Shown here one piece after another: positions 3,806-62,578 of a stretch of 64,000 nucleotides of DNA (the first letter of the stretch is position 1; every line of letters starts with the position of its first letter). A program made the translations under genes and the position numbers. The stretch lies in the NCBI GenBank assembly GCA_012799825.1, contig JAAZKK010000016.1:12009-76008 (forward strand), written 5' to 3'. The DNA is from Clostridiaceae bacterium (GTDB lineage: Bacteria; Bacillota; Clostridia; Saccharofermentanales; DTU023). Under the pieces are notes generated by a model that saw only the letters and a program-made list of their open reading frames with translations, was not told where the DNA came from and ran no database searches.

Positions 3806-4755
3806 ATGGAAAACAAGCGTGAACTGGTTGTTGGTGTAGACGTGGCTAAAGTAGTGAAATCTGTATCCTTGACCTCGACTATTCCATTCACAGGAGAATG
3901 TCAGTGCGACACGACTCAGCAGAAAGCATGGATCATCTCATGCGAACTATTATGGCCAAAGAAAAGGATTTTGAAGCAACAGCGACCGTTGTTATAGAAT
4001 CCACTGGCCATTACCACAAAATCCTTAAACGTGCCCTAGACCTGCACGGGATACGGGTTGTTGTTAAGGATAAGGTTCTCAAACGCCTAGCCAAAGCATC
4101 TCGGAAAGGGATGACATGGGCACAAACCAAACTGGATACGATTCTGGTTAAAGACCGAACAATAGCTAAACTGGGCGCTAATGAAGCGGTCTTTGCCGAT
4201 CTGATTCGCTCCGAAATCGTGCTGTGCCAAGCCTTAAATCAACAAATGACCGCACGTCTTGAGCGCGTGAAAGACTATCTTCAAAAAAATGCTAGGAGTG
4301 ATAATCCAAAGCTGGCGCTACAGGTTGCTCTACTGCAGACGATTCCCGGAGTAGGACTTATCTCGGCTTTAACGATCGTGGCTGAATGCGGAGATATCTC
4401 GCGCTTCAAGCATGCAAGAGCACTCACTGCCTTTGCTGGCCTAGATCCGTCCGTGAAGGAATCGGGGCAATTTAAAGGAACTCGAAACAAGGTCTCCAAG
4501 CGGGGAAATCGCCAGCTGCGGCAAGCGCTCTATATGGTCGCTATGCGCTCCGTCAGCATCAACAGAAAGGGCGATTATGTTAACCCTTACTTGCGTGACT
4601 TCTATGACAGAAAGTGTCAATCGAAACCCAATAAAGTGGCCTTGATCGCTGTTGCGCATAAACTCATCTTCATCATTTTTGCTGTTCTTCGTGATCAGAA
4701 ACCGTTCTATTGGGTGGACCCAGAAGAGCATCAAGTCAGGATCAACTCGGCCTGA
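3806..4755 (+). pseudogene. IS110-family DEDD transposase/recombinase, interrupted by a frameshift near 3.85-3.90 kb
   Basis: N-terminal MENKRELVVGVDVAK (frame of 3806) continues in the frame of 3898 with ATVVIESTGHYH. C-terminal Transposase_20-type motif LQTIPGVGLISALTIVAECGDISRFKHARALTAFAGLDPSVKESGQFKG...SKRGNRQLRQALY. Confidence 0.75.
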
Positions 4756-4969
4756 TTATCTCTATTCTCTTGTCAAGGTACAAACGCCTGCTTCTCAAAG
4801 GGCGGTTCTGTTGGTGTGCTCTTTTCTAGAGCAATCCTTACACTTCTTGCTAATAATCAATACCGGCTATTTGGGGCCTTGACTGATTAGCTGGCTTGTA
4901 CCTATTGTACCCAATATTCACTGTAATACTCTGACTCCAGACCTTTGAAAATCGTTCAGCAAACCCTAA

Positions 4970-5785
4970 TTAATACTCTTGCATTGTGTTACCTGCTAGT
5001 TTGTTGTTTTTTTGGTGCTGTGAGTGCCATCTTAAAATTTTGCTTTCCACAAAGTTTAGTAAGTAATTAAGTATAATGCCCATAAATAGAAGGAGAAAAA
5101 CACATGACATTACTCTGGTTACGATGAAATATGATGACGCATAAGCAACCATCCAGCCAAAGCCTGCCGTAGCTCCCATATACTCACCTATTATTGAACC
5201 CACTATACTCGCACCTATACCTCCCCTAATGCCACCTAGAATGGACGGCATACAGGCAGGGAGAATAACGTGCCACCATGTCTGAGCTGTTCCGGCACCT
5301 AGCATTGTTGATATTTCAATTAGCTTTCTGTCGATATTATTAATTGCTCCGTAGGTTGCGAAAAAAACAACAAAAAACACCATAAGCCCAGCTAGAAATA
5401 CCTTGGAAGTCAATCCCAAACCAAACCATAATATATAAAGAGGAGCTAAGGTCAACTGGGGCACACTGTTAATTGCTGTTAATATCGGAGTAAAAATACT
5501 CCCAAGTATTTTAAACTGCCCAAATAATGCAGCGACAATAATACCAAGAAAGCAACCAACGATTAATGCGCTCAGAGCTTCTTGTAGAGTAATGGAAGCA
5601 TGTTTCCAAAGATCTCCACTAGTATAAAATTCTACTATGTCTTTAATGATGGCACTTGGATAACTTGTATAGAATGAGTCGAATCTTTCAGTTTTAGCCC
5701 CCCATTCCCATAGCAGTATTAGTCCGCCAACCAGCAATATCTGTATTACACTAATTAATATATGCCGCCTTTTTTCCCTATGCAT
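4970..5785 (-). CDS. ABC transporter permease (NitT/TauT/SsuC-like)
   Basis: 271 aa, multi-TM, binding-protein-dependent permease signature region. Follows the ATPase and SBP genes in the same operon. Confidence 0.75.
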   Translation of the reverse strand: MHREKRRHILISVIQILLVGGLILLWEWGAKTERFDSFYTSYPSAIIKDIVEFYTSGDLWKHASITLQEALSALIVGCFLGIIVAALFGQFKILGSIFTPILTAINSVPQLTLAPLYILWFGLGLTSKVFLAGLMVFFVVFFATYGAINNIDRKLIEISTMLGAGTAQTWWHVILPACMPSILGGIRGGIGASIVGSIIGEYMGATAGFGWMVAYASSYFIVTRVMSCVFLLLFMGIILNYLLNFVESKILRWHSQHQKNNKLAGNTMQEY

Positions 5786-5798
5786 AAATAATCGCTCC

Positions 5799-6821
5799 TT
5801 ATAATATCAGAAGATTCTTCTTGTTAACAGCTAAAGAAACGACTTCGTCATCTTTATATACCTCTGGCGTATCAAATTTTACATCCACCTTAATTTTGAC
5901 ACCCTCAACATTGATTAAATATTTTATTACGCTTTGCTGCAGAATATTGCTGACTACTTTTCCTGTCATGTAGTATAAATCTTCTTGTACATCAAAAGGC
6001 GCATTTGCAATTTCTATCACTTCCGGGCGGATGGCAACTGTAGTCCCATCTTTTGATAATTTCTCCGCTTTAGTGATTAATTTAAATTCATCGACAGATA
6101 ACATATTATAATTTCCAATAAAACTGGCGGCAAAAATAGTTTTTGGATTTGTATAGAGTTCACTGGGAGTTCCTGATTGTTCAATATAGCCATCATTACT
6201 AAAAAGGAAAATAATGTCGGACATCCGCATGGCCTCAATTTGATTGTGAGTAACAAATATTGACGTCATATTAAGTTCTTTATGAATCTCCTTTATTCTG
6301 CCCTGAAGTTCTGTTCTAAGTTTAGCGTCAATTGCGCTGAGAGGCTCGTCCAATAATAGAACTTTGGGAAACACCACTAAGCTTCTTGCCAAGGCTACCC
6401 GCTGCTGTTCACCACCCGAAAGCATGCTCGGATATTTACCTGTATGCTCGGTTAATTCTACCATTTTGATGACCTCTTTGACACTTTTGTCAATTTTGTC
6501 TCTATCGACACCTCTCATTTTTAGACCAAAAGCGATGTTATCATAAACTGTCATAGTAGGAAACAGACTGTATTGCTGGAATATCATACCTAAATTGCGA
6601 GATCTCACGCTTTTATTTGTGATATCCTCTCCGTCTAGCATTATCGTACCACTGTCAGGAATTTCTAATCCTGCAAAACAGCGCAATAATGTTGTCTTGC
6701 CACAACCAGAAGACCCCAATAATGTGACAAACTGGCCCTGTTCTATAGTCAGATTGATATCCTTTAAAACATGTTTATTACCAAAGTGTTTCTCAATATG
6801 CTTGAATTCTATGTAAGCCAC
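5799..6821 (-). CDS. ABC transporter ATP-binding protein with C-terminal TOBE-like domain
   Basis: Walker A GSSGCGKTT, signature LSGGEQQRVALAR, Walker B LLLDEPLSAID. 340 aa. Confidence 0.85.
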   Translation of the reverse strand: MAYIEFKHIEKHFGNKHVLKDINLTIEQGQFVTLLGSSGCGKTTLLRCFAGLEIPDSGTIMLDGEDITNKSVRSRNLGMIFQQYSLFPTMTVYDNIAFGLKMRGVDRDKIDKSVKEVIKMVELTEHTGKYPSMLSGGEQQRVALARSLVVFPKVLLLDEPLSAIDAKLRTELQGRIKEIHKELNMTSIFVTHNQIEAMRMSDIIFLFSNDGYIEQSGTPSELYTNPKTIFAASFIGNYNMLSVDEFKLITKAEKLSKDGTTVAIRPEVIEIANAPFDVQEDLYYMTGKVVSNILQQSVIKYLINVEGVKIKVDVKFDTPEVYKDDEVVSLAVNKKNLLIL

Positions 6822-6839
6822 TTTTCCTCCCGCTATACC

Positions 6840-7847
6840 CTATTCTGTTAAAGAAGTTTGGGCATTTTCCAAATAATTCATATTTACTATATCCTCATAT
6901 TCTATTTTGGTTTGCGGAATTCCGTATTTCATAAAGAAATTTTCAACTGCATCAAATCCTTTTTTACTAATATAACCATCGTTCGAAAAGGCTGGTCTTA
7001 AATAGTTGATTCTTAAGGCCAGATCCTCTTGGCTCATCGAAGAATAATATGAAGTGATCTTTGCAGCTATCTCGGCATCCGAGTGTTCTTGCACCCAATA
7101 TAGTGCTTTAAGGACAGCATTAACAAATTTTTGCACCGTTTCGGGGTTCTTTTTAGAAAATTCCTTGGAACAGCAAATTACGTCCGTTTCAAACTTATCA
7201 GAACCATAAAATTCAAGTGCGGTCTCAGGATCTCCGGTGCTGAATACAATGTTTACACCTGCTTTCTCGAGATCTGAAGTGTATTCAATCCCAAAGTATG
7301 AAGCTTTGATCTGCCCGCTACCTAAAGCTGCTAATGCAGCACCGTAATCCAAATTTACATAAGTAATGTCTTCTTTAATATTAAGCCCGGCGTTTGTTAA
7401 AACATTGCTGACTAGTTGATATGGTTCCGAACCAGGCAATCCGGCAAAAACAATTTTGCCTTTCAATTGGTCAATACTGTTAATAGACTTTGCCGTTGCC
7501 AAGACAAAAGGCCTGTTTTTCTTCATAGCAATTACTAATTCCGATCTCAAGCCTTGATCCTCACCAAGAAAGATTGTACCTTGGGAAAGCAAACAAAACT
7601 GAGAATTATTCGCATGCATACCCTGTAAAGCTAATGTTCCATCTCTATATACCGCAAATTCTACATCAAGACCTTGCTCTTCAAAATAACCAAGTTCATA
7701 GGCTAAATGCACAGGCAACCAACTCAATGCGCGGAATTCAGCTACAATAATTTTTGTTGATTGTTCTTTATTATTATTTGAGGTGCCGCATCCTACAAAT
7801 AAAAAAATCAAGAGCAAGGCTACACATATTGATAATACTCTTTTCAT
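6840..7847 (-). CDS. ABC substrate-binding lipoprotein (NMT1/THI5-like, SsuA/ThiY type)
   Basis: Lipoprotein signal LLIFLFVGCG. Periplasmic-binding fold of the NMT1/THI5 type, judged from overall sequence character and operon context. Confidence 0.6.
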   Translation of the reverse strand: MKRVLSICVALLLIFLFVGCGTSNNNKEQSTKIIVAEFRALSWLPVHLAYELGYFEEQGLDVEFAVYRDGTLALQGMHANNSQFCLLSQGTIFLGEDQGLRSELVIAMKKNRPFVLATAKSINSIDQLKGKIVFAGLPGSEPYQLVSNVLTNAGLNIKEDITYVNLDYGAALAALGSGQIKASYFGIEYTSDLEKAGVNIVFSTGDPETALEFYGSDKFETDVICCSKEFSKKNPETVQKFVNAVLKALYWVQEHSDAEIAAKITSYYSSMSQEDLALRINYLRPAFSNDGYISKKGFDAVENFFMKYGIPQTKIEYEDIVNMNYLENAQTSLTE

Positions 7848-7916
7848 CGCTGCATCCTCCGTTCATCCTGCTATAATATAATAAAGATTGTTATATAAAA
7901 ACTTCCAAATATTTTT

Positions 7917-8501
7917 TCACTTAACGAGCTCTTTTCCCTCGGTCTCTTCTCCCCATCTCTTAAAAAGATTCTCTTCGATCGAAAACTGGTCAAGGATCTT
8001 CCCAACAGTTTGATTGACAATATCATCAAGAGACTTAGGCTGGTGATAAAAAGCCGGTACAGGTGGAAGGATTACTCCCCCCATTCTAACAACTTTCATC
8101 ATTAATTCTAAATGTCCCTCGTGAAGTGGTGTTTCTCTAACCATCAGGACAAGCTTGCGCCGTTCTTTTAGTGAAACATCAGCTGCCCTTATAAGTAAAT
8201 TAAAATTAAAGGAATTAGCAATAGCCGAGAGCGTTTTTATGGAACAAGGTGCAACAATCATCCCATCAGTCTTGAATGAACCGCTGGCAATAGCCCCACC
8301 AATATCATTAATATCGTAGATGACAGACGCTAAGGCGTCCAAATCAGCTACTTTATATGACGTTTCAATCTCAAGATTCTTAATAGCAGCCTGTGAATAA
8401 ACCAGATGAACATTGGCGTTGGCTCTACTTAAAACTTCCAGTAATCTCACACCGTAAATTACTCCGCTTGCTCCCGTTATGCCTACCACAATCCTTGACA
8501 T
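7917..8501 (-). CDS. ubiX: flavin prenyltransferase UbiX (prFMN synthase)
   Basis: MSRIVVGITGASGVIYGVRLLEVL... 194 aa, with the typical UbiX/Pad1 N-terminus and length. Confidence 0.85.
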   Translation of the reverse strand: MSRIVVGITGASGVIYGVRLLEVLSRANANVHLVYSQAAIKNLEIETSYKVADLDALASVIYDINDIGGAIASGSFKTDGMIVAPCSIKTLSAIANSFNFNLLIRAADVSLKERRKLVLMVRETPLHEGHLELMMKVVRMGGVILPPVPAFYHQPKSLDDIVNQTVGKILDQFSIEENLFKRWGEETEGKELVK

Positions 8502-8644
8502 ATATACTGCCTCCGCATGCCATTATTTGTTATGTTAAATTGTAGTACTGTCCCCATGCCATTAAGCCATAGGCTACTGCTTAAAAAGCAACCTATGGCT
8601 ATGGTTAACAAGTATCAGGTTGCAGGCAAGCCTATTTCTTTCCT

Positions 8645-9937
8645 CTAATAGCCCTTTTTCGCCAAGAAAAGGAACAAGAGTGAGCAAATTAAGGCCGTAG
8701 AAGAGAATAACGTAACAACAGCGCTGTAACTAGAAATCCCTAGAATATATCCTGCTATAGTTGGCGCAAGTGCTCCCACTGCCGATCCTATCATGCCGGC
8801 AAATCCAATAGCGGCGCCAAGCGTTGCCTTTGACATTGTTTTATGGAAGGTGGTATGTATCCCTAAAAATCCAGGCTGTTGACACCCTACCGAGATAACA
8901 ATGAAAACCATTGCTATATAGTTATTCTTAATTACATTTCCGCCGATAAACATCGCTACTGCAGTAATCAAATAGGCTATGCCGCTAAATAGGGCACGAC
9001 GTTGGAATTTGTCCTGCAAGAATCCCATAATGGCAACAGTGATCATCGACCAAGCCCAGTTAAGAGAAAATAGTAAACCTGATGTCTTAAACGAAAAACC
9101 GCGTGCAGTATTGAAGTAAGAAGGCATCCATGTCATCCACCCGAAATAGTAAATGTTGGTACTGCACCAGATCACCGCAAGAATCCAAAATCTATAATCC
9201 CGCAAAAAGCTCCAATCTTTTTTTATAACTTGCTCTTCCTCACCTTTTTCCTGCAACTCTGCCTTTATTCCTGCTTCAATATAAGCAACTTCATTTTTGC
9301 TCATCCATTTGCTCTGTGAGGGATATTCCTTCATAAGAAAAATGATCGGAATCAACGGTAGCAGCGAGATCAACCCATGTAGGTAAAATGCATACCGCCA
9401 TCCTCCGGAAGCAATCATGGCTACAACTATTATTCCCGAAAGAACAGGGCCTACTGTTGTACCGTTCAACCAAAACGCACTTGCTCGACCGCGTTCTTTA
9501 GGCGGAAACCAGTTACCTACGTAGACGTTAAAAAGAGGAAACATAACACCTTGCCCAACACCAAGAATAATTCTGCCAATTATTATCTGGCCGGCTGTAG
9601 TTGAGAGACCACTTACCGCCATCGTAAGTGCCCAAATAATGGATGCAACAATGCCCGTATTACGAGGGCCTATTTTATCAATGATTGGTCCCCAGATCGA
9701 CTGTGTTAACGCATATGTGATCAAATAACTGGTAGCCAGCATCCCGGCCAAAGCAGGTCGATTAACCAAGTCTAAATCACTTAGAAACTGTTGATTAGAG
9801 ATCAATATCGAAACAGAAACCCTACTTAAGAGGATAATCGCCCCAATAAACGCCAAGGGCGTCGCCATTAAAAACCATCTTCTTATCCCAACAGATTCTT
9901 GGTTGGTATTCTTTGTTTTGAGATCCTTATTGCTCAT
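8645..9937 (-). CDS. MFS transporter (anion:cation symporter-like organic acid permease)
   Basis: 430 aa, about 12 TM segments. The WFPPKERGRASAFW loop motif is typical of ACS-type MFS carriers. Confidence 0.7.
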   Translation of the reverse strand: MSNKDLKTKNTNQESVGIRRWFLMATPLAFIGAIILLSRVSVSILISNQQFLSDLDLVNRPALAGMLATSYLITYALTQSIWGPIIDKIGPRNTGIVASIIWALTMAVSGLSTTAGQIIIGRIILGVGQGVMFPLFNVYVGNWFPPKERGRASAFWLNGTTVGPVLSGIIVVAMIASGGWRYAFYLHGLISLLPLIPIIFLMKEYPSQSKWMSKNEVAYIEAGIKAELQEKGEEEQVIKKDWSFLRDYRFWILAVIWCSTNIYYFGWMTWMPSYFNTARGFSFKTSGLLFSLNWAWSMITVAIMGFLQDKFQRRALFSGIAYLITAVAMFIGGNVIKNNYIAMVFIVISVGCQQPGFLGIHTTFHKTMSKATLGAAIGFAGMIGSAVGALAPTIAGYILGISSYSAVVTLFSSTALICSLLFLFLAKKGY

Positions 9938-10091
9938 TTTAACACCTCCTTTAAAATCTCTCCTATCAAATGCTCTAATGCTTCTTTTTCACTGCTATCT
10001 ACTTGCTTTTATTACTGCTTCAGAAACTTTTTTTTATCACCACCTTCCTCAATTCTTCTTATTATTATGTCCTTTATGTCTTTGACGAGTT

Positions 10092-11102
10092 TCAACCTTC
10101 GAATCGCTTAATTGCATCTAATAGTTCTTCTATTGCTCTGGTAATCACCTGATAAGACTCTCTTTTTACTTTTATGGTGACCCCCGTTTCTCGTACAACG
10201 GCTCTTTTCCCTTTAACCTCTTCAAGAGCCATGTCTATCACCTTTTTCTTCACTTCCTCTTCCTCTAGAACACCGATATTGCTTAGGATATAATCCGCAG
10301 TTTTCTCTAGCTGAATCGGCTCTTTGGCAAGAGCTCCGACAAAAATCCTGACAATTGGCGCCAGACCTTCGGCAACCGGTGAAAACCGTACAGCAACGTT
10401 AACTGTGGGAAAGTCTATTGACTGTCTAGTGCTATACTTGATAAACTTATCCCATGTTCCTGGCACATGGTAGGGAATGAGAATCCCCGTTATCAAGTAG
10501 TTCTTGCCTTTTTCCGACAAATAGTCGTTCAAAAGATCCTGAAGCAAAACCGTCTTTTCTCCGTCAGCATCATAGAGAAGAACCTTGGCATCATATGCAA
10601 GAAGTACGGGAGCAAGATCCGAATAATAAAGAGCACGGCACTCGGGTAATTTAGGAGCTTGATAACATATCTCCCCTCCGACTTTTATACAGGGAGGTTT
10701 ACTCTTGCGCCATTCTTCAGATTGGTTGTAATAATAACATCTCTTTTCCTGTAAAACATTCCCGGCAATGGTCCCCAAATTCCTGATCTGCGGCGACGCT
10801 ACGCAAAAGGCGCTGTAGCTAAGAGCTGGCATATGCTGGAGAATAACCGGATCTTTTGTAAGTTCAAAGAGAGTTACCATGGCGCCGATCAAAAGGCCGT
10901 CTTCTCTTTTCTCAATCGTCTTTAAGCTTGAAATGTTTTCAAGATCCAACAAGCATTCAGGTTTTTTTACGCCATACTGCATTAAGGGAATGAGATCTGT
11001 ACCCCCAGCTAGGATGGTAACGTTATCTCGCCGTTGGAAAAATTCTGCAGCCGTTTCCAAGGAGCAAGGAGCTTCATATTTAAACCGGTATCTTGAAATC
11101 AT
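10092..11102 (-). CDS. FAD-binding subunit of XO-family molybdoenzyme with extra four-Cys ([4Fe-4S]-type) insertion, HcrB-like
   Basis: ILAGGTDL and GTIAGNV FAD-binding (CoxM/XdhB-type) motifs. Insertion KRCYYYNQSEEWRKSKPPCIKVGGEICYQAPKLPEC has Cys at residues 122, 138, 146 and 155. 336 aa versus 294 aa for the other FAD subunit in this window. Confidence 0.75.
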   Translation of the reverse strand: MISRYRFKYEAPCSLETAAEFFQRRDNVTILAGGTDLIPLMQYGVKKPECLLDLENISSLKTIEKREDGLLIGAMVTLFELTKDPVILQHMPALSYSAFCVASPQIRNLGTIAGNVLQEKRCYYYNQSEEWRKSKPPCIKVGGEICYQAPKLPECRALYYSDLAPVLLAYDAKVLLYDADGEKTVLLQDLLNDYLSEKGKNYLITGILIPYHVPGTWDKFIKYSTRQSIDFPTVNVAVRFSPVAEGLAPIVRIFVGALAKEPIQLEKTADYILSNIGVLEEEEVKKKVIDMALEEVKGKRAVVRETGVTIKVKRESYQVITRAIEELLDAIKRFEG

Positions 11103-11125
11103 AATACCTTCCTCTCATTGTTTCC

Positions 11126-13414
11126 TTAATAAAAGAAATCCTCTCGGTTCCCCCCCAGAAGAAACACTTTTGCAAGAGGTGTCGGGAAGTTACTATTTTC
11201 CCCTGTGGCATTAGAAACCGCATTTACGATAGCAGGAGCAACCGCGACCGTGGAAAGTTCTCCAACTGATTTAGCTCCAAATGGACCTGTAGGCTCATAG
11301 CTGTTTTTAACAATATCCACATGAATTTCCGGCATATCAAGCGATGTAGGAACCTTGTAATGCAAAAGATCTGACGTTGAGGGCTTATTAGCCGTTTTAT
11401 CAATTTCAATTTGTTCCATTAGAGCCAAACCAATTCCCTGAGCAGTTCCACCGTGAAGCTGCCCCTTTACAATATCTGGATTAATGGCTGTTCCTACATC
11501 AGCTACCTGAATGAAATGACGAAGTGTAATAACTCCCGAAGTATTATCAACGGCAACCTTAGCCCAACAAACGTGAAAAGGCGCAGGGCTTCTATCAGCT
11601 TTATAGCACGCCGATCCTATGATAGCTGTGCCCTCCTTGCCGAATGCAATCTTGGCCATACATTCTTTCAAGGAAAGAAATATATCGCCCTCTGGAGCCT
11701 TGACAGTAAAAACACCTTTCTTGTGGGAGATTTTCTCCGGTTCAATACCGTAATACTTAGCCAGCACTGAACAAATCTTGTCTTTAGCATCAACTGCTGC
11801 ATTATACACAGCATTACCACCAACATAAGCCTGACTGCTGGCAAACGAACCTTGCTCATACGGGGTGCAGGAAGTATCCGCAGCAGTTACACTAATATCC
11901 TTGAGCTCCACACCCATTTCTTCGGCTAATATTTGACTGAAGGCGGTTTCGCTACCCTGCCCCATATCCGATGTTCCCGTGAGCAAAGTCATAGTGCCAT
12001 CATCATGCACTAAAACAGCAGATGAACTCATACCTTCATTATCCGTAGTACCTGAGGCGTGGCAACCGAATGCTACTCCCCAGGATTCAACGGTATTTGA
12101 GTCTTTCGGCAAAAATACTTCTTTATGATCAATTTCTTGCCTGATTTCTTCACCACGCTTTACGCATTCCCTGATAGCACAGCTCCGAACAGTGAAGGGA
12201 ACCCCTGGGAAATTCTCCCCAACTTCCACATGATTCATTAATCTGAACTTTATAGGATCAATCCCAAGCTTGCGCGCCATTTTATCCATCATAATTTCAC
12301 GGCATAAAGTAAGCTGAGGATTGCCATAACCTCTCATAGCACCCGCTACAGGGGCATTTGTATAAACAGAAAATGCTTCGAAATGGTAATGAGGTGCGTG
12401 GTACTGATACTTTTTGCTCATTGACCCCAAAACAATCGGAGTATGCGTACAGTACGCCCCTGAGTTCCCATAGACCTTAACATGATAAGCCAAGATACGC
12501 CCATCTTGGCTTACCCCAAACTTCAGCCTGCAGATGCAACTCATGCGAACACACGAAGCATACATCTCTTCTTCGCGAGTATTAATGATTTTTACCGGTC
12601 GCCCTACCAGTTTCGACAACAGAGCGCCCACTGGCTGGTTATGCAACTGTTGGCGTTGGCCAAATCCTCCACCCATAAATGGTTTGATTATCCTGACATC
12701 ATTTTCTCTCATGTTCAATATCTCAGCCAAGATCCTTCTATCGTGAAATAAAACTTGAGAATTCGCCCAAACTGTAAGCTTGCCTTCTCTGCTATAATCA
12801 CATATGCAGCTTACCGGCTCCATAGCTACATGCTGGACACTGGGTATATGAAATTCGTCTTCAAAAATATAATCTGATTCCTGAAATCCACGCTCAACAT
12901 CGCCCTGCTTCATCTCGGTCTTCTTAAATACATTCGACTTAAACAACTCCGGGTGAATCAGAGGTGCATCCTCCTTCATTGCGTCCCTAACATCAAACAC
13001 CGCAGGAAGCACTTCATATCGGACAGCCATTTTCGCTAATGCTTCTTCGCAAGCCTTTGGAGTAAGGGCAGCAACGGCGGCAATTCTGTCGCCCGCATAT
13101 AGCGGCTTAGCAGTGAGAATCCTTTCATCCTTTACATATGCAGGATATGGCGGACTGCTGCCACAATTAAACAGCACATCGGGAACATCTTCCGGAAGTA
13201 AAATCCCCAACACTCCATCAACCTTTTCTGCTTCTGTTTTGTCAATACTCGCAACCCTTGCGTGAGCATGCGGACTCCTGAGAATTTTCCCATAAACCAT
13301 CCCCGGCAAATTCAAATCATCCGTAAATTTAGCACACCCCATCACTAAAGAGAGGGCATCACGGCGGGAACAGGACTTTCCGACAACCTTGTACTCTTCC
13401 ATAGCAAACACCAC
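11126..13414 (-). CDS. molybdopterin-binding large subunit of XO/aldehyde-oxidase family enzyme (HcrA-like)
   Basis: 762 aa. FMGGGFGQRQQ and GAMRGYGNPQ family motifs, and C-terminal PFGAKSVGE. The start could be GTG 13414 or ATG 13402. Confidence 0.85.
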   Translation of the reverse strand: MVFAMEEYKVVGKSCSRRDALSLVMGCAKFTDDLNLPGMVYGKILRSPHAHARVASIDKTEAEKVDGVLGILLPEDVPDVLFNCGSSPPYPAYVKDERILTAKPLYAGDRIAAVAALTPKACEEALAKMAVRYEVLPAVFDVRDAMKEDAPLIHPELFKSNVFKKTEMKQGDVERGFQESDYIFEDEFHIPSVQHVAMEPVSCICDYSREGKLTVWANSQVLFHDRRILAEILNMRENDVRIIKPFMGGGFGQRQQLHNQPVGALLSKLVGRPVKIINTREEEMYASCVRMSCICRLKFGVSQDGRILAYHVKVYGNSGAYCTHTPIVLGSMSKKYQYHAPHYHFEAFSVYTNAPVAGAMRGYGNPQLTLCREIMMDKMARKLGIDPIKFRLMNHVEVGENFPGVPFTVRSCAIRECVKRGEEIRQEIDHKEVFLPKDSNTVESWGVAFGCHASGTTDNEGMSSSAVLVHDDGTMTLLTGTSDMGQGSETAFSQILAEEMGVELKDISVTAADTSCTPYEQGSFASSQAYVGGNAVYNAAVDAKDKICSVLAKYYGIEPEKISHKKGVFTVKAPEGDIFLSLKECMAKIAFGKEGTAIIGSACYKADRSPAPFHVCWAKVAVDNTSGVITLRHFIQVADVGTAINPDIVKGQLHGGTAQGIGLALMEQIEIDKTANKPSTSDLLHYKVPTSLDMPEIHVDIVKNSYEPTGPFGAKSVGELSTVAVAPAIVNAVSNATGENSNFPTPLAKVFLLGGNREDFFY

Positions 13415-13442
13415 TTAAACGTTTAATAAGCAACTCCAGGAA

Positions 13443-14879
13443 CTAAAAACCATACTTTTTCCAGCGATCCAACGCTTTTTTCTGCATATCCTCCGGATAG
13501 GTTTCCGCAAGGCTGGTCCTTATAGGCACTTCTTCCGCCGGCCAATCCTTCGGCCAGGTGCAGTCAAAATAAGCACGTGCTCCGCTTCTGTGCAAGCGTT
13601 CATGGCTATCAGCGTATGGAGTGTAACTTATGATGGGCGCTTTCTTGATTTGAAAAATTCCTTTACCAGGATGGCACTTGGAAGATAGTGCATGCAACAC
13701 CATTGGAAGATCAAACGGATCTACATTTTCATCCACAACGATTAGATAATACATAGAGCGCGAAGCTCTAACCGACCAAATAATATTTGCTATGTCAGTA
13801 GCCACATTGGCATAGGTCGTCTTCACAGAAACTATGGTCAATTGAAGGGCGCATTCCGGCGGTACGTTAACTGCTTTTACATCTATGCCAAAGTTCCTTA
13901 AGGCCTTTAAACACTCCGCCGCTTTGGTAATAGAAACAATGGAGTGCGAGTCTGCCAGAGGCATACCCTCATTGGAATACGTAAACACAGGATTATTTCT
14001 GTGAGTAATTGCAGTAACACGCATAACAGGACGCGGCAATTGGCCTGCTACACCATAACCGGTAAACTCTCCAAATGGGCCGTCAACCTCTCTCTCATGA
14101 GGCCTCATTTCTCCCTCAAGAACAATTTCAGAAGTCGCAGGAACCAAAATATCACTAGTTTCACATTTCACCAACTCAACAGGCTTACGGCGCAACCCTC
14201 CTGCTACATCAACTTCAGATACGCCAAAGGGAATTGGACTGGCGGAGCATATAAGACAAGTAGGTTCAGGTCCTATGGCAATCGCTGTCTTCATGGTTTC
14301 TCCACGTTCTTCACAACGTGTAAGCATTCCCCCAAAATGAGTAGGTGGATCAGCTGTAACACCAAGCCTTTTCTCATCAAACATCATACCGCGGTGCATT
14401 CCATAGTTCGTCCAAGTCGTTCCGTCCGGCTGCACTTCGCTGGAGATATTGAGATGAAACGTCGCAAAGAATCTTCCGCCATCACCACCATGGATGATAG
14501 GCGCTGGGAATTTTGTGAGGTCGACATCCTTGCCAAGTATAATATTCTCCTTACAGGGACCGCTTTTTACCACAACCGGTTTAATAGGATTTCTCGATCT
14601 CTTAAGATATTCTTCCTGCAATTCCGATGGTGGTGTATCGGGATCCATATCCATGGCAATAGCTACCCGCCGATGATTGGCAAGAATACCGCCAGCCATC
14701 TTATAATTCGAAGGATAATCTTTAATTTTTTCAAAATACGGTGCCGGAAGACGCTTTTCATGAGACGCACGAAGTATTGCACCCGCCTCTAAGTTCCAAT
14801 CGACCTCATCGGTCATCCGAACTAATTCTCCCTCTTGCTCTAGCTTGTCGATAAATTCTCTCACATCATTAAATGCCAT
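13443..14879 (-). CDS. UbiD-family (prFMN-dependent) reversible decarboxylase
   Basis: 478 aa. N-terminal DVREFIDKLEQEGELVRM and DGPFGEFTGY motifs are typical of the UbiD family. Confidence 0.85.
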   Translation of the reverse strand: MAFNDVREFIDKLEQEGELVRMTDEVDWNLEAGAILRASHEKRLPAPYFEKIKDYPSNYKMAGGILANHRRVAIAMDMDPDTPPSELQEEYLKRSRNPIKPVVVKSGPCKENIILGKDVDLTKFPAPIIHGGDGGRFFATFHLNISSEVQPDGTTWTNYGMHRGMMFDEKRLGVTADPPTHFGGMLTRCEERGETMKTAIAIGPEPTCLICSASPIPFGVSEVDVAGGLRRKPVELVKCETSDILVPATSEIVLEGEMRPHEREVDGPFGEFTGYGVAGQLPRPVMRVTAITHRNNPVFTYSNEGMPLADSHSIVSITKAAECLKALRNFGIDVKAVNVPPECALQLTIVSVKTTYANVATDIANIIWSVRASRSMYYLIVVDENVDPFDLPMVLHALSSKCHPGKGIFQIKKAPIISYTPYADSHERLHRSGARAYFDCTWPKDWPAEEVPIRTSLAETYPEDMQKKALDRWKKYGF

Positions 14880-14933
14880 TGCTAGTAAGCCTCCTTTTCA
14901 AAATCCATTTTTATACACAATTGCTTCAACCTC

Positions 14934-15422
14934 TCAAAGATCTAAGCTCTTAATATCATCGGCTGCTTTACGAACAGCTTTCTCTATATTGACATATCCA
15001 GTACAACGACAGATATTCCCGGAAAGGGCAACTTTGATTTCCTCATCTGACGGATCCGGGTTTTGATCCAATAAAGCTTTGGCTGACATTATCATTCCTG
15101 GAGTACAAAACCCGCATTGAACTGCACCTTCATCGACAAAAGCCTCTTGAAGGGGATGAGGTTTACCATCAACTGCCAATCCTTCGATTGTTAAAATATT
15201 CTTCCCATTCGCACGCATTGCCGGAATTTGACAGGAATTTACAGCCTTGCCATTCATTATTACAGTACAAGCTCCGCAAAGCCCCCTGTCACATCCCCGT
15301 TTTGTTCCTGTCAGTCCTAAGTCATCACGCAATACATCCAGCAAGCTGTCAGACAGGTCTACGTCTATCTGCCGTTCGCTACCATTAAGCTCAAACTTAA
15401 TCCTTATCCGCCCGTCTCCCAT
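14934..15422 (-). CDS. [2Fe-2S]-binding small subunit of XO-family molybdoenzyme (HcrC-like)
   Basis: 162 aa. GCDRGLCGACTV and CGFCTPG...CRCTGY cluster motifs. Confidence 0.9.
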   Translation of the reverse strand: MGDGRIRIKFELNGSERQIDVDLSDSLLDVLRDDLGLTGTKRGCDRGLCGACTVIMNGKAVNSCQIPAMRANGKNILTIEGLAVDGKPHPLQEAFVDEGAVQCGFCTPGMIMSAKALLDQNPDPSDEEIKVALSGNICRCTGYVNIEKAVRKAADDIKSLDL

Positions 15423-15500
15423 TGCTTCACCCCACCTTCAGGCGGGGGGACGCTCTCAGCATAAAGCACCAAGCAACACCCCCCACACCTTGTTAGGCTA

Positions 15501-16466
15501 TCAGACTTTAAACACTCTTTCGGCATTTCCGTGCATAATCAGTGCTGCCTCTTCTTCTGTGAACGTTGCTCCATATTTCTTGCCTTCTTCAGGTAGATTG
15601 CGGAAAATTTTTACCCATTGTTTAGTCAGTTTAATATCGCTTTCGACATGACCCATTTTATAGCTCGGCATATCTGTTCCAAACATAATTTTGTTTGCGC
15701 CAAGCACGTGTCTCATAGTTTTCATTTTGTACCAGAATTTTGGCATATCCGCTAAAACGTCACAGGTGTATTCCCTTTGCCAATCTGCAACATCCACATA
15801 CACATTAGGTTTACACGATGCAACAATTACTGCTTTTTCCCAGAACCAATCTGACGGATACTTGTCAAATCCCGTATGGCACATAATAATTTTCAAATCT
15901 GGCAAATCCCTAGCAATCTCTTCCACGTGAATCGGATCACCATATTTATTCAGCAAGCCTGAAGCGTGCTGAGCTCCGGTATGAATTGTAACCGGCACAT
16001 CAAGGTCAATACATTTTTGGTAATATGCATAACATATCGGATCATTTGCGTAAAAACCAGCAATAGGCCAGAAGCTAAGCCCTATTGCACCCCATTCCTT
16101 TACAGCCTTTTCAAACATTTTAATCCCGCCGGGACGCCTCGGGTCAATGCCAAAGAGGGAATATACTTTCCCTTTATAGCGTTCGGCCATCTCACATTGG
16201 AACTTATTGATATGTTCGATATCGGTAGGCGTGTCTCCGGGATAGGCTAGCCCTGAATCCACGGTATGTAGAATCACTGTATCAATATCGAATTCTTCAA
16301 CCTGCTTCATCATTACGCTTCCATCTTTATCCTGCTTATACCTATACCAAGCTTCCTCCAAGGAAACACCATACATGCCCTGAGTGTAAGACTCCACCCT
16401 TTGCACCGGATCCCAACCTACGCCCCAGTAGTGCCTGTGCGTATCAATTAATCTCGCTTTTGTCAT
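15501..16466 (-). CDS. amidohydrolase_2 (ACMSD/LigW/LigI superfamily) metal-dependent decarboxylase or hydrolase
   Basis: 321 aa. N-terminal LIDTHRHYW (HxH metal motif) and later IMCHTG and FGTDMP motifs, typical of the amidohydrolase_2 fold. Confidence 0.7.
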   Translation of the reverse strand: MTKARLIDTHRHYWGVGWDPVQRVESYTQGMYGVSLEEAWYRYKQDKDGSVMMKQVEEFDIDTVILHTVDSGLAYPGDTPTDIEHINKFQCEMAERYKGKVYSLFGIDPRRPGGIKMFEKAVKEWGAIGLSFWPIAGFYANDPICYAYYQKCIDLDVPVTIHTGAQHASGLLNKYGDPIHVEEIARDLPDLKIIMCHTGFDKYPSDWFWEKAVIVASCKPNVYVDVADWQREYTCDVLADMPKFWYKMKTMRHVLGANKIMFGTDMPSYKMGHVESDIKLTKQWVKIFRNLPEEGKKYGATFTEEEAALIMHGNAERVFKV

Positions 16467-16734
16467 AATTTGTGACCTCCTCTCCTATATTCAATATTTT
16501 TCAGGCAAAACAGAAAAGGTATTTCATTCAGCTATTTAAGTAATCCTGACAATTCTGAAAAACTCCGCTTTTACAATCGACTAATACTACTAAAACAACT
16601 AACAATCCACTTGTTTTTCTGTTATATTTGCCTATAATTAAACTAACATAAGCAAATTCTTGTTTCATCGTTGTCACTAATTAAAAATAGAATGTTTTAG
16701 TTGTGGATGACACACATGATTAGGATAATCAACA

Positions 16735-18288
16735 ATGCTACTTACCTTTAATAAACTATCTAAACACTTGGAAAAACAAGGATTCAAGGTTTACATACAT
16801 GTGAAAAAAGATGTGGTCTTACATGCGTCCGTGTTGATTAGTTCTAACTTAAACGCAGTCACGAACAACGTCGTTTATATAGGTACTGCCTCTTCTTTTC
16901 CTCGTACAATAGTTAACTCTCAGGACGGCTGTTATATCTTAATAGCTGATAGCGACACCCCATCCAAAAACAACCAGCCTTACTCACAATGTAATTATGT
17001 TCTTTTGCCTGCTGATACTGACTTGATGCAATTGTATAATGTTATTCAGGAATTTTTCATTAACGGCTCCATTATGTCGTCCTTTTCTGCAACACTTTTA
17101 AGTTCAATTATAAATGGTAAATGTTTACAAGATATCATCAACACAGCATATGAGTTCTTAGAAAACCCTATAACTTTGGTTGATAATTATTGGAAACTAC
17201 TTGCTTATACGAAAAATATCACATTAGATGATAAATATTGGCTAGAGCTTTCAAATAAAGGATATTACTCTAGCGAAACTGTACTTCTCATCACCAAGCG
17301 AAAACTCTTGCAGAAGCTAATAAATACCGACCAACCAATAATTCACACCTCAGGCGATACAGAAAACTACCGCAAAATGACAGGCAAAATAATGATCTCG
17401 CAAAGGATTTTCGGCTATATAAGCGTTTGGGAGTATAACAGATTATTTACCGAACAAGACAAGCACTTATTACAATTGACTTGCGGCGCAATTGGAGAAG
17501 TTATGCAAAAAAACGATTATTACCGTTATTCAAAAGGTGAGGCCTATGAATACTTGCTCAAGGATTTATTAGATATAAAAATCGAACATGTAGAGCTTAT
17601 TAACGATAGAATAAATTCTATTAAATGGAATTTTGGAGATACTCCTCATGTTTTGGTTCTTGATAACAGTTTTCCCCATACTAGTACAAGCTTCACTTAC
17701 AATGTAAGAATACATTTAGAGCGACTTATTCCCTTGTCAAAATCGGTTTTTTATCAGGACCATCTCATTTTTTTCTTTGACAAAAGCGCAAATACGAATG
17801 TACAGCAAGAGCGAATAGAACAAATAAAAAAGTTACTGCATAAAAACCGCCTTAAAGCCGGTGTCAGTAGCAAAATATCCAACATTCTTGACCTGTCTCT
17901 ATATTATACACAAGCGATAACGGCACTCGACTTGGGCAAGCGTTTAAATTTAGAGGAAGATCTGTATTTTTATGATAATCTGCTTATATATCATCTGCTC
18001 TCGAACTGTAATACGCTTGAACCTTTTTGTCACCAAGGCATTCTTGCTCTTGAAGACTATGATAAGCACAAAGATACAAGGTATTTTGAAACTCTCCTTG
18101 AATATTTAAAAAACGATAAAAGTGTATCCAAAACTGCGGCTGCGCTTCATATCCATCCAAATACTATGAGCTATCGACTCAAAAAAATTACAAAAATCGC
18201 AAATATCGATTTAGATAACCTAGAACAGTGTGCACATATTTTATTCTCGTTTAAAATGCTGGATTTGCTAAAAACACACAGAGATTAG
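16735..18288 (+). CDS. PucR/CdaR-family transcriptional regulator
   Basis: 517 aa. C-terminal HTH region LLEYLKNDKSVSKTAAALHIHPNTMSYRLKKI, typical of PucR_C. Divergent from the catabolic operon. Confidence 0.75.
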   Translation: MLLTFNKLSKHLEKQGFKVYIHVKKDVVLHASVLISSNLNAVTNNVVYIGTASSFPRTIVNSQDGCYILIADSDTPSKNNQPYSQCNYVLLPADTDLMQLYNVIQEFFINGSIMSSFSATLLSSIINGKCLQDIINTAYEFLENPITLVDNYWKLLAYTKNITLDDKYWLELSNKGYYSSETVLLITKRKLLQKLINTDQPIIHTSGDTENYRKMTGKIMISQRIFGYISVWEYNRLFTEQDKHLLQLTCGAIGEVMQKNDYYRYSKGEAYEYLLKDLLDIKIEHVELINDRINSIKWNFGDTPHVLVLDNSFPHTSTSFTYNVRIHLERLIPLSKSVFYQDHLIFFFDKSANTNVQQERIEQIKKLLHKNRLKAGVSSKISNILDLSLYYTQAITALDLGKRLNLEEDLYFYDNLLIYHLLSNCNTLEPFCHQGILALEDYDKHKDTRYFETLLEYLKNDKSVSKTAAALHIHPNTMSYRLKKITKIANIDLDNLEQCAHILFSFKMLDLLKTHRD

Positions 18289-18289
18289 T

Positions 18290-18736
18290 CTATGTCAGAT
18301 TATTACAGCAGTAATCATGTGTTAATGTTTGAATTAATTCTTCAATTATTTCCTCAAGCAATTCTATCACTATATTAATTTCTGAACTTGTTATCTCTTC
18401 AAGATGAATTCCACAGCTCACCACCACCGTCTTATTGAGCTTAGTTACGAGAGTTTCTGCCGTCTTCTTAGCTACAGTATCTTCTTTATGTCCTAAAACT
18501 GTTAAAACTGAAGTGGAGGAACTTAGTCTTTCAGGATCTGACAAACTCTTTCGAGGCAGGCTTAGCGCCACAGCTCCAATGTGAGGCAATTCCCCTCCAG
18601 TTATCACTACACACAAATCATTTCCTGCCATTACAGCTGTTAAGTTGATCTTTACTCTTTCTCTTGCTTTTGTAATTTTCAGCACTTTAGCCACCTCTAT
18701 AAGGAGTACAAGGATAATTGCAATTGTTTTCTTCAT
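18290..18736 (-). CDS. LpdD-like small subunit / prenylated-flavin chaperone of hydroxyarylic acid decarboxylases
   Basis: VVITGGELPHIGAVALS resembles the VVTGGTNPHIGDV motif I recall from Lactobacillus plantarum LpdD. The start is uncertain: the ORF opens at 18778, and MKKT at 18736 was chosen. Confidence 0.55.
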   Translation of the reverse strand: MKKTIAIILVLLIEVAKVLKITKARERVKINLTAVMAGNDLCVVITGGELPHIGAVALSLPRKSLSDPERLSSSTSVLTVLGHKEDTVAKKTAETLVTKLNKTVVVSCGIHLEEITSSEINIVIELLEEIIEELIQTLTHDYCCNNLT

Positions 18737-18967
18737 GATACCGTTTCTCTTCTCTTTTTTGGTGCGGCACGTATTCACTTCATGCTATTATCAATACCCT
18801 ATTAAGTTAAAAAGGACAAAACTTCGCTTCATATTATAATTGATTCCCTTCTCTAGATAAAGGTACAGCTCTATTAATTTTTGTGAGAACTCGATCACGA
18901 AAATGCCCAACACCTGATCCGGGCAGGCCTGTTTTGTGTAAGGAAGTAGTGGACAGCATTTACATTG

Positions 18968-61542: not shown

Positions 61543-61634
61543 AAGCGTATTGCTCCTCTCCTCGTCATCACGCCGTCGCTTTTCCGGCATCATGAACTCT
61601 ATATATCAAGAAAGTATCTTTTTTGTCGAAGCTG

Positions 61635-62519: not shown

Positions 62520-62578
62520 TCTATTACCTCCGACACCGCTCGGGCGGTCTTCTGCGAGATATTACTAAACCTTATTCC

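Follow-up and report, generated by a model that had tools for sequence, protein, structure and literature searches.

Does a molybdoenzyme that carries the cysteine loop of a reductive dehydroxylase, and whose subunit genes are parted by the gene of a decarboxylase, take hydroxyl groups off aromatic acids or put them on? The question is raised by a stretch of 64,000 nt from Clostridiaceae bacterium (assembly GCA_012799825.1, contig JAAZKK010000016.1, positions 12,009-76,008 of the forward strand; hereafter the window), which encodes a three-subunit molybdo-flavoprotein of the xanthine oxidase (XO) family. Between the genes for its gamma subunit, with two [2Fe-2S] clusters, and its molybdopterin-binding alpha subunit lies ubiD, encoding a (de)carboxylase dependent on prenylated flavin mononucleotide (prFMN); the gene for the beta subunit, which binds flavin adenine dinucleotide (FAD), follows. 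An initial annotation of these four genes assigned the enzyme to the class of 4-hydroxybenzoyl-coenzyme A (CoA) reductase (4-HBCR, HcrABC) and read it as a dehydroxylating reductase. That headline is not established by our analysis. The enzyme appears to belong to an uncharacterized loop-bearing clade of the XO family, outside the HcrABC orthologous group, and we tentatively prefer a role as a hydroxylase in the breakdown of a free aromatic or heteroaromatic carboxylate.

An HcrB-type loop in the FAD subunit

The four cysteines of the beta subunit stand at residues 122, 138, 146 and 155 (codons 10737-10739, 10689-10691, 10665-10667 and 10638-10640), exactly as first described, and the stated kinship of the loop with that of Thauera aromatica HcrB is borne out by alignment: residues 111-210 of beta align with residues 111-213 of HcrB without a gap through the insertion of about 40 amino acids, and the cysteines are identically numbered. 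The subunit sizes were also stated correctly, with 762, 336 and 162 amino acids for alpha, beta and gamma here and 769, 324 and 161 in the solved Hcr chains (1RM6, from T. aromatica HcrCAB). Among chains in the PDB, the best phmmer match of beta is HcrB (1RM6_B; E = 3.8e-34, 121.7 bits), and a Foldseek search with an AlphaFold2 model of beta returns the same chain first (E = 1.4e-21; template modeling (TM) scores 0.77/0.80). Identity to HcrB is 36%, compared with 26-30% for the other FAD subunits aligned. The model has a predicted local distance difference test (pLDDT) value of 83.7 overall and of only 51-68 in the loop, as expected because the cluster is absent from the model. In all 120 of the 120 best homologues (40-52% identity) the loop reads C-x15-C-x7-C-x8/9-C, and the four cysteines form invariant columns in an alignment of 21 sequences. 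The four-Cys pattern is confirmed as real, correctly placed and beyond chance, and the insertion is predicted from its likeness to HcrB to hold an extra [4Fe-4S] cluster.

A second XO-family gene set lies near the end of the window (61051-63892, minus strand), comprising a [2Fe-2S] subunit of 180 amino acids, an FAD subunit of 294 amino acids with a CO_deh_flav_C domain, and a Mo subunit that runs off the window end. Its FAD subunit (61635-62519, minus strand) is loop-less, as had been observed; the alignment shows the whole insertion to be missing, and Escherichia coli XdhB likewise has none.

Alpha and gamma subunits outside the HcrABC group

The Mo-pterin domains (a/b-hammerhead, MoCoBD_1/2), FAD_binding_5 and the two [2Fe-2S] domains all score far above the Pfam gathering cut-offs, and these domains and the order of the open reading frames (ORFs) uphold the description of an XO-family molybdoenzyme with ubiD between its gamma and alpha genes. 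Membership of the 4-HBCR class found no support. All three NCBIfam equivalog models for Hcr (TIGR03194, TIGR03195 and TIGR03193) miss their cut-offs, with 517.5 against 994.55 for alpha, 181.3 against 404.55 for beta and 182.5 against 257.8 for gamma; alpha lies outside the HcrA clade, gamma is nearest to a nicotinate hydroxylase subunit, and no CoA ligase was found among the 49 ORFs of at least 180 amino acids in the window. Hcr-like character thus appears limited, among the three subunits, to the one that binds FAD.

The best NCBIfam model for alpha is XdhA (604.3, under its cut-off of 780), and the BLASTP identities of alpha are 33.2% with E. coli XdhA (392 bits), 32.8% with HcrA (340 bits) and 27% with PaoC. 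Compared with solved structures, alpha finds its best single chain in HcrA (345.9 bits), and its two halves match NdhL (244.2 bits) and NdhM (146.7 bits) of the nicotinate dehydrogenase of Eubacterium barkeri (3HRD). For gamma, NdhS of the same enzyme is the nearest solved chain (192.6 bits) and HcrC ranks fourth (153.7 bits). Two neighbor-joining (NJ) trees of alpha (about 750 trimmed columns; 50 and 40 bootstraps; few characterized references) place it in its own clade of 14 sequences with 100% support, in which every partner FAD subunit bears the HcrB-type loop. E. coli XdhA branches as the sister of this clade, with bootstrap support of 68% and 90%; HcrA sits apart, in a clade with other environmental sequences. 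A phylogeny of alpha had been proposed as a check on the reductase assignment: grouping with HcrA is not recovered, and the position beside XdhA, in NJ trees at about 33% identity and with few characterized references, gives no firm placement among hydroxylases. We read the trees as pointing to an enzyme that is not HcrA-like, short of a proven hydroxylase.

Some features of nicotinate dehydrogenase and XdhABC would suit the present enzyme beyond these affinities, in that a clostridial host and a PucR-type regulator fit the catabolism of N-heterocycles. However, neither NdhF nor XdhB has the [4Fe-4S] insertion, identity is only about 33%, the Mo subunit of nicotinate dehydrogenase is split, and neither system has UbiD or Amidohydro_2 partners. 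The active site of alpha offers little help: its catalytic-Glu motif GAKSVGE, with the equivalent of bovine E1261, aligns with GAKEASE in HcrA and with GAKG(L/I)GE in KdhL and CoxL. Since the catalytic Glu, Gln and Arg of the RG(Y/F/H)G motif are common to hydroxylases and HcrA, these residues cannot tell the direction of the reaction.

The loop and the direction of electron flow

The reductive direction had been deduced from the loop itself, and two groups of enzymes speak otherwise. E. coli PaoB (of PaoABC, 5G5G) and the medium subunit of a Methylobacillus aldehyde oxidase (5Y6Q) have a Cys-rich insertion at the same site, aligning through the loop region, and act oxidatively; the RefSeq name of PaoB is 'aldehyde dehydrogenase, FAD-binding Fe-S subunit'. 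Both loops differ from that of beta in Cys pattern and length, so the loop in the window is specifically HcrB-type. PaoABC, moreover, is periplasmic, and identity to these enzymes is 27-30%. Conversely, the urolithin C dehydroxylase UcdCFO of Enterocloster, an XO-family enzyme, strips a phenolic hydroxyl group with no such loop (PMC11760930), and the related system UxdFOC has a differently built FAD subunit, UxdC, with extra Fe-S (4Fe-4S) sites (PMC12658268). Ucd and Uxd resemble the present enzyme as three-subunit members of the XO family from Clostridia, and they are substrate-induced and remove hydroxyl groups reductively from CoA-free phenols (PMC11760930, PMC12658268). They differ from it in that UcdC is loop-less, UxdC carries, in place of an HcrB-type insertion, additional Fe-S and FAD/NAD(P) domains of their own, and neither gene cluster has UbiD, UbiX or an amidohydrolase. 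These enzymes show that such a loop by itself does not fix the direction of electron flow; its homology with that of HcrB does, however, speak for electron exchange with a low-potential, ferredoxin-type partner and not with NAD(P).

Operon layout and a predicted prFMN system

The four genes first annotated, at 10092-15422, are correctly delimited and form only part of the full unit. The operon extends on the minus strand from about 16466 down to about 4970, with related genes at 16735-18778 (Table 1), and the amidohydrolase, UbiX, the LpdD-like chaperone, the major facilitator superfamily (MFS) and ATP-binding cassette (ABC) transporters and the PucR regulator had been overlooked. In order of transcription the operon encodes the Amidohydro_2 enzyme, gamma, UbiD, alpha, beta, the MFS transporter, UbiX and an NMT1/SsuA-type ABC transporter (4970-7847). 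Its genes are tightly spaced and run in one direction, and the same arrangement stands on at least six independent metagenome contigs, with ubiD in identical form between the gamma and alpha genes. One contig that carries the identical operon is labeled biogas fermenter metagenome, and the FAD-subunit protein is indexed in 29 blocks of the metagenome collection. For the alpha gene, the gene callers choose the ATG at 13402 as the likely start, which gives 758 amino acids. Unlike in Hcr loci, where the enzyme has a CoA ligase and benzoyl-CoA context, the subunit genes here are accompanied by the interleaved ubiD, the amidohydrolase, UbiX and transporters, and no thioesterase, phenylphosphate synthase, or benzoyl-CoA reductase or other benzoyl-CoA pathway gene was found in the window.

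Table 1. Predicted features of the operon and its borders, in window coordinates
Feature	Position	Strand	Evidence and remarks
LpdD-like prFMNH2-binding chaperone	18290-18778	minus	PF21758 (PAC_bac / LpdD_chaperone) 132.5 bits; gene callers give a 148-aa start
PucR-family transcriptional regulator	16735-18288	plus, divergent from operon	Pfam HTH_30 (PucR C-terminal HTH) 64.8 bits, and GGDEF_2
Amidohydro_2 (ACMSD/LigW/LigI superfamily) metal-dependent enzyme	15501-16466	minus	First operon gene; PF04909 85.2 bits
XO-family gamma, 2 x [2Fe-2S], 162 aa	14934-15422	minus	Pfam Fer2_2 120.2 bits, and Fer2
UbiD-family prFMN-dependent (de)carboxylase, 478 aa	13443-14879	minus	Pfam UbiD_N, UbiD, UbiD_C
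XO-family alpha, molybdopterin-binding, 762 aa from GTG	11126-13414	minus	Pfam Ald_Xan_dh_C, MoCoBD_1, MoCoBD_2
XO-family beta (FAD), 336 aa, HcrB-type [4Fe-4S] insertion	10092-11102	minus	Pfam FAD_binding_5 141.5 bits
Four-Cys loop codons, Cys122 to Cys155 (C-x15-C-x7-C-x8-C)	10638-10739	minus	Codon positions checked
MFS transporter, anion:cation symporter type	8645-9937	minus	Pfam MFS_1 172.8 bits
UbiX flavin prenyltransferase	7917-8501	minus	NF004685 264.2 (cut-off 188); TIGR00421 254.2 (cut-off 108.9)
ABC-transporter substrate-binding lipoprotein, NMT1/SsuA family	6840-7847	minus	Pfam NMT1 88.1 bits
ABC transporter ATPase	5799-6821	minus	Pfam ABC_tran in identical contigs; among ATP-binding subunits in NCBIfam
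ABC transporter permease	4970-5785	minus	Last operon gene; Pfam BPD_transp_1; NCBIfam SsuC/TauC-like permease matches below cut-off
IS110-family transposase	3898-4755	plus	Edge of low-GC block; Pfam Transposase_20 96.7 bits

UbiD passes the cut-off of TIGR00148 (308.8 against 244.85) and shows DGPFGE in the region of the E/D-R-E catalytic motif. Its nearest solved structures are the pyrrole-2-carboxylate decarboxylase PA0254/HudA (256 bits) and Fdc1 (about 230 bits), and matches to the HmfF-type 6H6V (172 bits) and to AroY (96-98 bits) are weaker; its top NCBIfam match is the phenylphosphate carboxylase alpha subunit (358 bits, under the cut-off of 564.6). The LpdD-like protein, whose gene lies just outside the operon and convergent with that of the regulator, well exceeds the cut-off of 27 for its Pfam family and matches the solved LpdD structures 8pzh, 8p4w and 8po5 by phmmer (E ~1e-6). 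LpdD is a chaperone that binds reduced prFMN (prFMNH2) and assists UbiD activation (PMC10865409), and the locus would therefore hold a complete prFMN system of UbiD, UbiX and an LpdD-like protein. The same three families make up the gallate decarboxylase system LpdBCD of Lactiplantibacillus plantarum (PMC10865409), from which the present locus departs in that its UbiD is not of the LpdC/AroY type and its LpdD-like gene is outside the operon; lpd, for its part, has no Mo-enzyme or amidohydrolase partners.

The amidohydrolase, modeled by AlphaFold2 with a pLDDT of 92.3, retains His10, His12, His162, His197 and Asp265. Its Foldseek neighbors (E ~1e-13, TM 0.6-0.7, 14-19% identity) include LigW, gamma-resorcylate and dihydroxybenzoate (DHBA) decarboxylases, the hydratase LigJ and lactonases of the LigI/COG3618 type. 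A TIM-barrel fold with such a His/Asp set (HxH on beta-1, His on beta-5 and on beta-6, Asp on beta-8) fits the ACMSD/LigW decarboxylases but equally fits lactonases and hydratases of the superfamily, and to judge by the model the enzyme could be an ortho-hydroxy-acid decarboxylase, a lactonase or lactamase, or a hydratase. The MFS transporter probably imports an organic acid. In NCBIfam it comes nearest to TIGR00893 (185 bits), followed by the aromatic acid/H+ symporter family TIGR00895 (105 bits), and neither score reaches its cut-off. Weak NCBIfam matches of the regulator are to AdeR, PmfR and CdaR. Comparison of the substrate-binding protein with the PDB returned distant relatives only (3qsl, SsuA, ThiY, THI5) and no clue to the ligand.

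Recurrence of UbiD, XO and amidohydrolase genes

To see how widely this arrangement occurs, we surveyed 79 loci with relatives of UbiD at 40-54% identity in species-representative genomes, with flanks of up to 10 kb on each side; the genome that holds the window is not among them. An XO-family gene lies near the UbiD relative in only four of these loci (L013, L036, L038 and L061), and the ubiD-interleaved XO architecture is not widespread. From the other side, a metagenome scan based on the beta alignment, with two search patterns of which one was generic, gave 80 loci, over half of them loop-less and 37 loop-bearing. A survey of neighborhoods of Hcr-like trios with ubiD had been suggested at the outset, and such trios prove rare: UbiD occurs at one of the 37 loop-bearing loci, L115, in the order AstE-like, UbiD, alpha, gamma, beta with loop, UbiX. 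Nothing separates the gamma gene from the alpha gene in any other loop-bearing trio examined.

Orthologues of UbiD and of the amidohydrolase, at about 60% identity, also occur together elsewhere, in two cases next to an XO-family enzyme that is not orthologous to the present one. On a marine scaffold (L180), a C-terminal fragment of an XO alpha, UbiD (61%) and Amidohydro_2 (60%) are encoded consecutively on one strand, and L176/L177 hold Amidohydro_2 (48%), a PaaK-like CoA ligase, a loop-less FAD subunit, a [2Fe-2S] subunit, alpha (39%), a lactonase-like metallo-beta-lactamase (MBL) protein and UbiD. Two further contexts have UbiD and the amidohydrolase: UbiD, a 63-aa ORF, a cyclase-family protein, Amidohydro_2 (58% identity), UbiD and MFS in L172/L173, and two Amidohydro_2 genes with one UbiD in L184. 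In an NJ tree the alphas of L176 and L180 fall in the clade on the HcrA side, not in that of the window. Because these alphas are non-orthologous, the combination of XO, UbiD and Amidohydro_2 has been assembled more than once, which argues for functional coupling rather than accident. Coupling of UbiD to XO is rare but recurrent, and its link to the amidohydrolase is the stronger signal.

Several other loci met in these surveys deserve mention. In the Desulfonema limicola MAG (metagenome-assembled genome) locus L013 (1500-12786), one strand encodes UbiD (46%), UbiX (67%), two FAD-dependent oxidoreductases, a short-chain dehydrogenase/reductase (SDR), a PNPOx-like protein, an XO alpha-like protein (35%) and an aldehyde:ferredoxin oxidoreductase of the tungsten/molybdenum kind, which makes this a further cluster that joins UbiD to molybdo- or tungsto-enzymes. 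Eleven tandem UbiD paralogues, 28-48% identical to that of the window, occupy one strand of a Thermodesulfobacteriota MAG contig (CAZCTP010000002.1; L007, 1-17600), and shorter tandems comprise three UbiD genes in L012 and two each in L009, L010, L015, L041 and L080.

Among the loop-bearing trios, L094-L112, from metagenome contigs of which at least one is labeled human gut, form a tight clade with the order gamma-alpha-beta and alphas 43-46% identical to that of the window; in L101 (7192-10894) a lone trio adjoins housekeeping genes, dnaK and dnaJ among them. Genes for NifU and NifS (cysteine desulfurase) precede the closest relatives of alpha (59-60%), in L086 (4946-9918) and L087 (4697-9610), and in L086 gamma and alpha are fused into one protein of 942 amino acids. 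A trio in Dethiosulfatibacter aminovorans DSM 17477 (FQZL01000004.1; L089, 2060-13416; alpha 51% identical) is flanked by three genes of the aromatic-amino-acid ammonia-lyase family, a BCCT transporter and a sigma-54 activator, a setting that suggests a part in breaking down either an amino-acid betaine or an acrylate of the aromatic or imidazole type. Taken together, the contexts of the nearest loop-bearing trios (NifU/NifS, a generic CoA ligase of fatty-acyl type on the other strand, aromatic ammonia-lyases, dnaK/dnaJ) gave no shared clue to a substrate.

A proposed hydroxylase route for free aromatic acids

In its general part, our model of a substrate-inducible, catabolic operon, probably acquired horizontally, is one that we hold with considerable confidence. 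Its specific form is more tentative, and we rate it slightly short of even: the operon would degrade a free aromatic or heteroaromatic carboxylate independently of CoA, by means of a ferredoxin-linked Mo hydroxylase, a decarboxylase and a ring-opening or decarboxylating hydrolase. The acid would be imported by the MFS transporter, the ABC transporter or both. UbiD would remove, or reversibly add, a carboxyl group, with UbiX making the cofactor and the LpdD-like chaperone delivering it. The XO-family enzyme would hydroxylate a ring carbon with water at a Mo-molybdopterin cytosine dinucleotide (Mo-MCD) site, and the two electrons released would pass from Mo through two [2Fe-2S] clusters, FAD and the HcrB-type [4Fe-4S] cluster to ferredoxin. 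The Amidohydro_2 enzyme would then open the resulting lactone or lactam, or remove a carboxylate ortho to the new hydroxyl. What we observe are the genes and their domain families, the homology and conservation of the loop, the recurring module of UbiD and Amidohydro_2 with or without an XO enzyme, and the lack of a CoA ligase in the window; that ferredoxin is the redox partner, that the reaction is oxidative, in which sequence the steps run and what kind of substrate is used are deduced.

Hydroxylation is favored by the grouping of alpha with XdhA rather than HcrA and by XdhA as its best curated model, and by the affinities of gamma and, by summed NdhL and NdhM scores, of alpha, which are no more distant from the clostridial nicotinate hydroxylase than from Hcr. 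The nearest relatives of UbiD, HudA and Fdc1, act on heteroaromatic and acrylic acids and are not of the AroY/LpdC kind, and the PucR-type regulator and NMT1-type binding protein likewise seem to favor this route. So does the failure to find a CoA ligase in the 64 kb of the window; 4-HBCR chemistry depends on a thioester. The GAKSVGE motif may also be counted here. The hydroxylase model, which we prefer, would account for the three enzymes together, the missing CoA genes, the relationships of the alpha and gamma subunits, the likeness of UbiD to HudA and Fdc1, and the setting with PucR- and NMT1-type proteins.

A precedent exists in the hmf pathway of Cupriavidus basilensis, in which a UbiD/UbiX decarboxylase of furandicarboxylic acid (FDCA; HmfFG) feeds an XO-family hydroxylase, the furoyl-CoA dehydrogenase HmfABC, whose product lactone needs hydrolysis; in some strains all the genes stand in one cluster (PMC3223595). 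The novelty initially suggested for a coupling of UbiD to such an enzyme is accordingly overstated. The L176 module, with its ligase, XO enzyme, lactonase-like MBL protein, UbiD and Amidohydro_2, looks like a variant of the hmf logic. The operon in the window differs from hmf, which is aerobic, proteobacterial and dependent on CoA thioesters, in having neither ligase nor thioesterase, and its UbiD scores lower against the HmfF type than against HudA.

Several points weigh against hydroxylation, and most of them speak for the opposite direction. To our knowledge, the reductive 4-HBCR is the sole biochemically characterized enzyme with exactly the loop C-x15-C-x7-C-x8-C, and dehydroxylation is a typical anaerobic step for hydroxybenzoates. 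Beta is clearly nearest to HcrB, with identical Cys spacing in the loop, and no other single solved chain matches alpha as well as HcrA does. Because HcrA and UcdO retain the catalytic Glu too, this residue is non-discriminating, and the sister position of XdhA comes from NJ trees with few characterized references at about 33% identity. By analogy, a hydroxybenzoate substrate would fit the structural neighbors of the amidohydrolase (LigW and the gamma-resorcylate and DHBA decarboxylases), which act on phenolic lignin-derived acids, as well as LpdD, which comes from a gallate decarboxylase system; decarboxylases of gallate and of hydroxyarylic acids typically come with this trio of LpdD, UbiX and UbiD (PMC10865409). 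In Clostridia, phenols without CoA are dehydroxylated by XO-family enzymes, one of which has the extra 4Fe-4S sites of UxdC (Ucd, Uxd; PMC11760930, PMC12658268).

Alternative explanations

The best-surviving alternative, possible though less probable to us than a hydroxylase, keeps the reductive direction first proposed but drops the CoA. In such a CoA-independent dehydroxylase, electrons would flow from reduced ferredoxin through [4Fe-4S], FAD and two [2Fe-2S] clusters to Mo, where a free hydroxy-aromatic acid, or what is left of it after decarboxylation, would lose a phenolic hydroxyl. Two decarboxylases of the same family of phenolic acids would assist, UbiD for para- and the ACMSD-type Amidohydro_2 enzyme for ortho-hydroxyarylic acids, and the whole would serve as an electron sink or for detoxification. 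The points just listed are its support. On the other side, neither alpha nor gamma is Hcr-like, UbiD belongs to none of the AroY, LpdC and VdcC types, and no thioester-forming enzyme was found in the window; in a Birch-like mechanism, an unactivated carboxylate would take up electrons poorly. The L176 module, with a loop-less FAD subunit and lactonase-like partners, suits a hydroxylase route, and the loop, as PaoB and UcdC illustrate, sets no direction. In a more far-reaching version, which we consider rather unlikely, a ferredoxin-driven dehydroxylase forms a functional unit, possibly a physical complex, with the prFMN-dependent and ACMSD-type decarboxylases, and free hydroxy-aromatic acids lose both their hydroxyl and their carboxyl groups without CoA.

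An accidental landing of ubiD in an XO operon, with the two enzymes in unrelated pathways, would agree with the mosaic origin suggested by the low-GC block and its flanking insertion sequence (IS) element and with the adjacency of gamma and alpha in all other loop-bearing trios examined. We regard it as improbable, because the arrangement is stable across many samples, UbiX belongs to the same operon downstream of the XO genes, UbiD, Amidohydro_2 and an XO alpha meet again in L180 and L176, and UbiD, XO and UbiX do so in L115 and L013.

A genuine 4-HBCR, orthologous to HcrABC, with the CoA ligase and benzoyl-CoA pathway encoded elsewhere in the genome and UbiD acting as a phenol- or phenylphosphate-type carboxylase that feeds it, is highly improbable. 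Phenol degradation does join a UbiD-family carboxylase and Hcr in one pathway, the phenylphosphate carboxylase model is the top match of UbiD although its cut-off is missed, and the subunit sizes and the numbering of the loop cysteines parallel those of Hcr. But the scores fall short of the three equivalog cut-offs by between about a third and over half, alpha is outside the HcrA clade, genes for a CoA ligase, phenylphosphate synthase and benzoyl-CoA reductase were not found in the window, the host is a fermentative Clostridia-class MAG, and the amidohydrolase would be left without a role.

Least likely of all is a Mo-flavo-FeS enzyme that serves as a redox accessory of UbiD, oxidizing prFMNH2 to its iminium form by two electrons without O2 and passing them to ferredoxin: although ubiD sits inside the XO gene set, clusters of UbiD and XO recur with non-orthologous XO enzymes, and the UbiD of obligate anaerobes must mature prFMN without O2 by an oxidant that is not known (PMC10865409), a full substrate-hydroxylating Mo site is far more than the task requires, 75 of the 79 UbiD-relative loci have no XO subunit gene in their flanks, only 1 of 37 loop-bearing XO loci has UbiD, and the recognized maturation helpers, such as LpdD and PhdC, are small proteins.

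Genomic setting

NCBI labels the source a 'Clostridiaceae bacterium' MAG, and the host is a strictly anaerobic, fermentative bacterium of the class Clostridia from anaerobic digesters. The guanine-plus-cytosine (GC) content is 0.36-0.45 over the first 20 kb of the window (1-20 kb) and 0.47-0.54 in the rest, with minima over 6-8 kb, where transporter genes lie, and over 16-18 kb, around the regulator. Because of this low GC and the IS110 transposase at its edge, the block that contains the operon may have been acquired horizontally. Beyond the transposase, a 939-aa ORF (141-2960, minus strand) has no Pfam match and keeps the same position on contigs L001 and L002. A riboswitch search over 4500-20500 found none, and a promoter and terminator scan gave nothing informative.

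Adjacent to the operon, at 18968-27182 on the minus strand, lie genes for BirA, an amidase-signature enzyme (20115-21632), the beta subunit of a Na+-pumping decarboxylase, an OadG-like protein, a biotin carrier, an MmdA-like carboxyltransferase and MdcA (805.9 bits, passing the equivalog cut-off of 789). From their annotation these look like a hybrid of a malonate CoA-transferase and a biotin/Na+-dependent malonyl-CoA decarboxylase system, and its malonate could come from malonamate or ureidomalonate by way of the amidase. These genes and the operon may be linked, yet the GC content differs. We therefore set aside, as a weak lead only, the idea that the operon feeds malonate into them by a route like oxidative pyrimidine degradation; none of the other instances of the module has such genes.

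Novelty and significance

Literature searches on UbiD with 4-HBCR, clusters of UbiD with xanthine dehydrogenase, UbiD with an amidohydrolase and molybdopterin, and UbiD with pyridine dicarboxylates returned nothing that describes this module. Its components are all of known kinds, the pairing of XO with UbiD/UbiX is known from hmf, and XO dehydroxylases of free phenols are known from Ucd and Uxd. What is new is a loop-bearing XO enzyme interleaved with UbiD and joined by a conserved Amidohydro_2 partner, without CoA and in a strict anaerobe; the recurrent association of UbiD with Amidohydro_2; and the finding that HcrB-type loops mark a broad uncharacterized clade of the XO family, many human-gut contigs (L094-L112) included.

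This loop-bearing clade is distinct from HcrABC and spans anaerobes, from deltaproteobacterial and digester MAGs and Dethiosulfatibacter to the human-gut contigs. The operon described here is so far its best-contextualized member, since the neighboring genes narrow the chemistry down to that of a free carboxylate with an aromatic or heteroaromatic ring, and it offers a UbiD from a strict anaerobe with its full maturation set of UbiX and LpdD. Were the enzyme a dehydroxylase after all, a fermenting anaerobe would strip hydroxyl and carboxyl groups from hydroxy-aromatic acids without thioester activation, which would extend Hcr-type 'inverted electron flow' beyond aryl-CoA substrates and give a function to a large loop-bearing clade that includes abundant members from the human gut. 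Whichever direction holds, the enzyme is a test case for whether the extra cluster dictates an 'inverted' flow of electrons. The module of UbiD and Amidohydro_2, with or without an XO enzyme, is a candidate anaerobic, CoA-independent route for acids derived from lignin, furans or N-heterocycles, one that would be relevant to anaerobic digestion and to xenobiotic metabolism in the gut.

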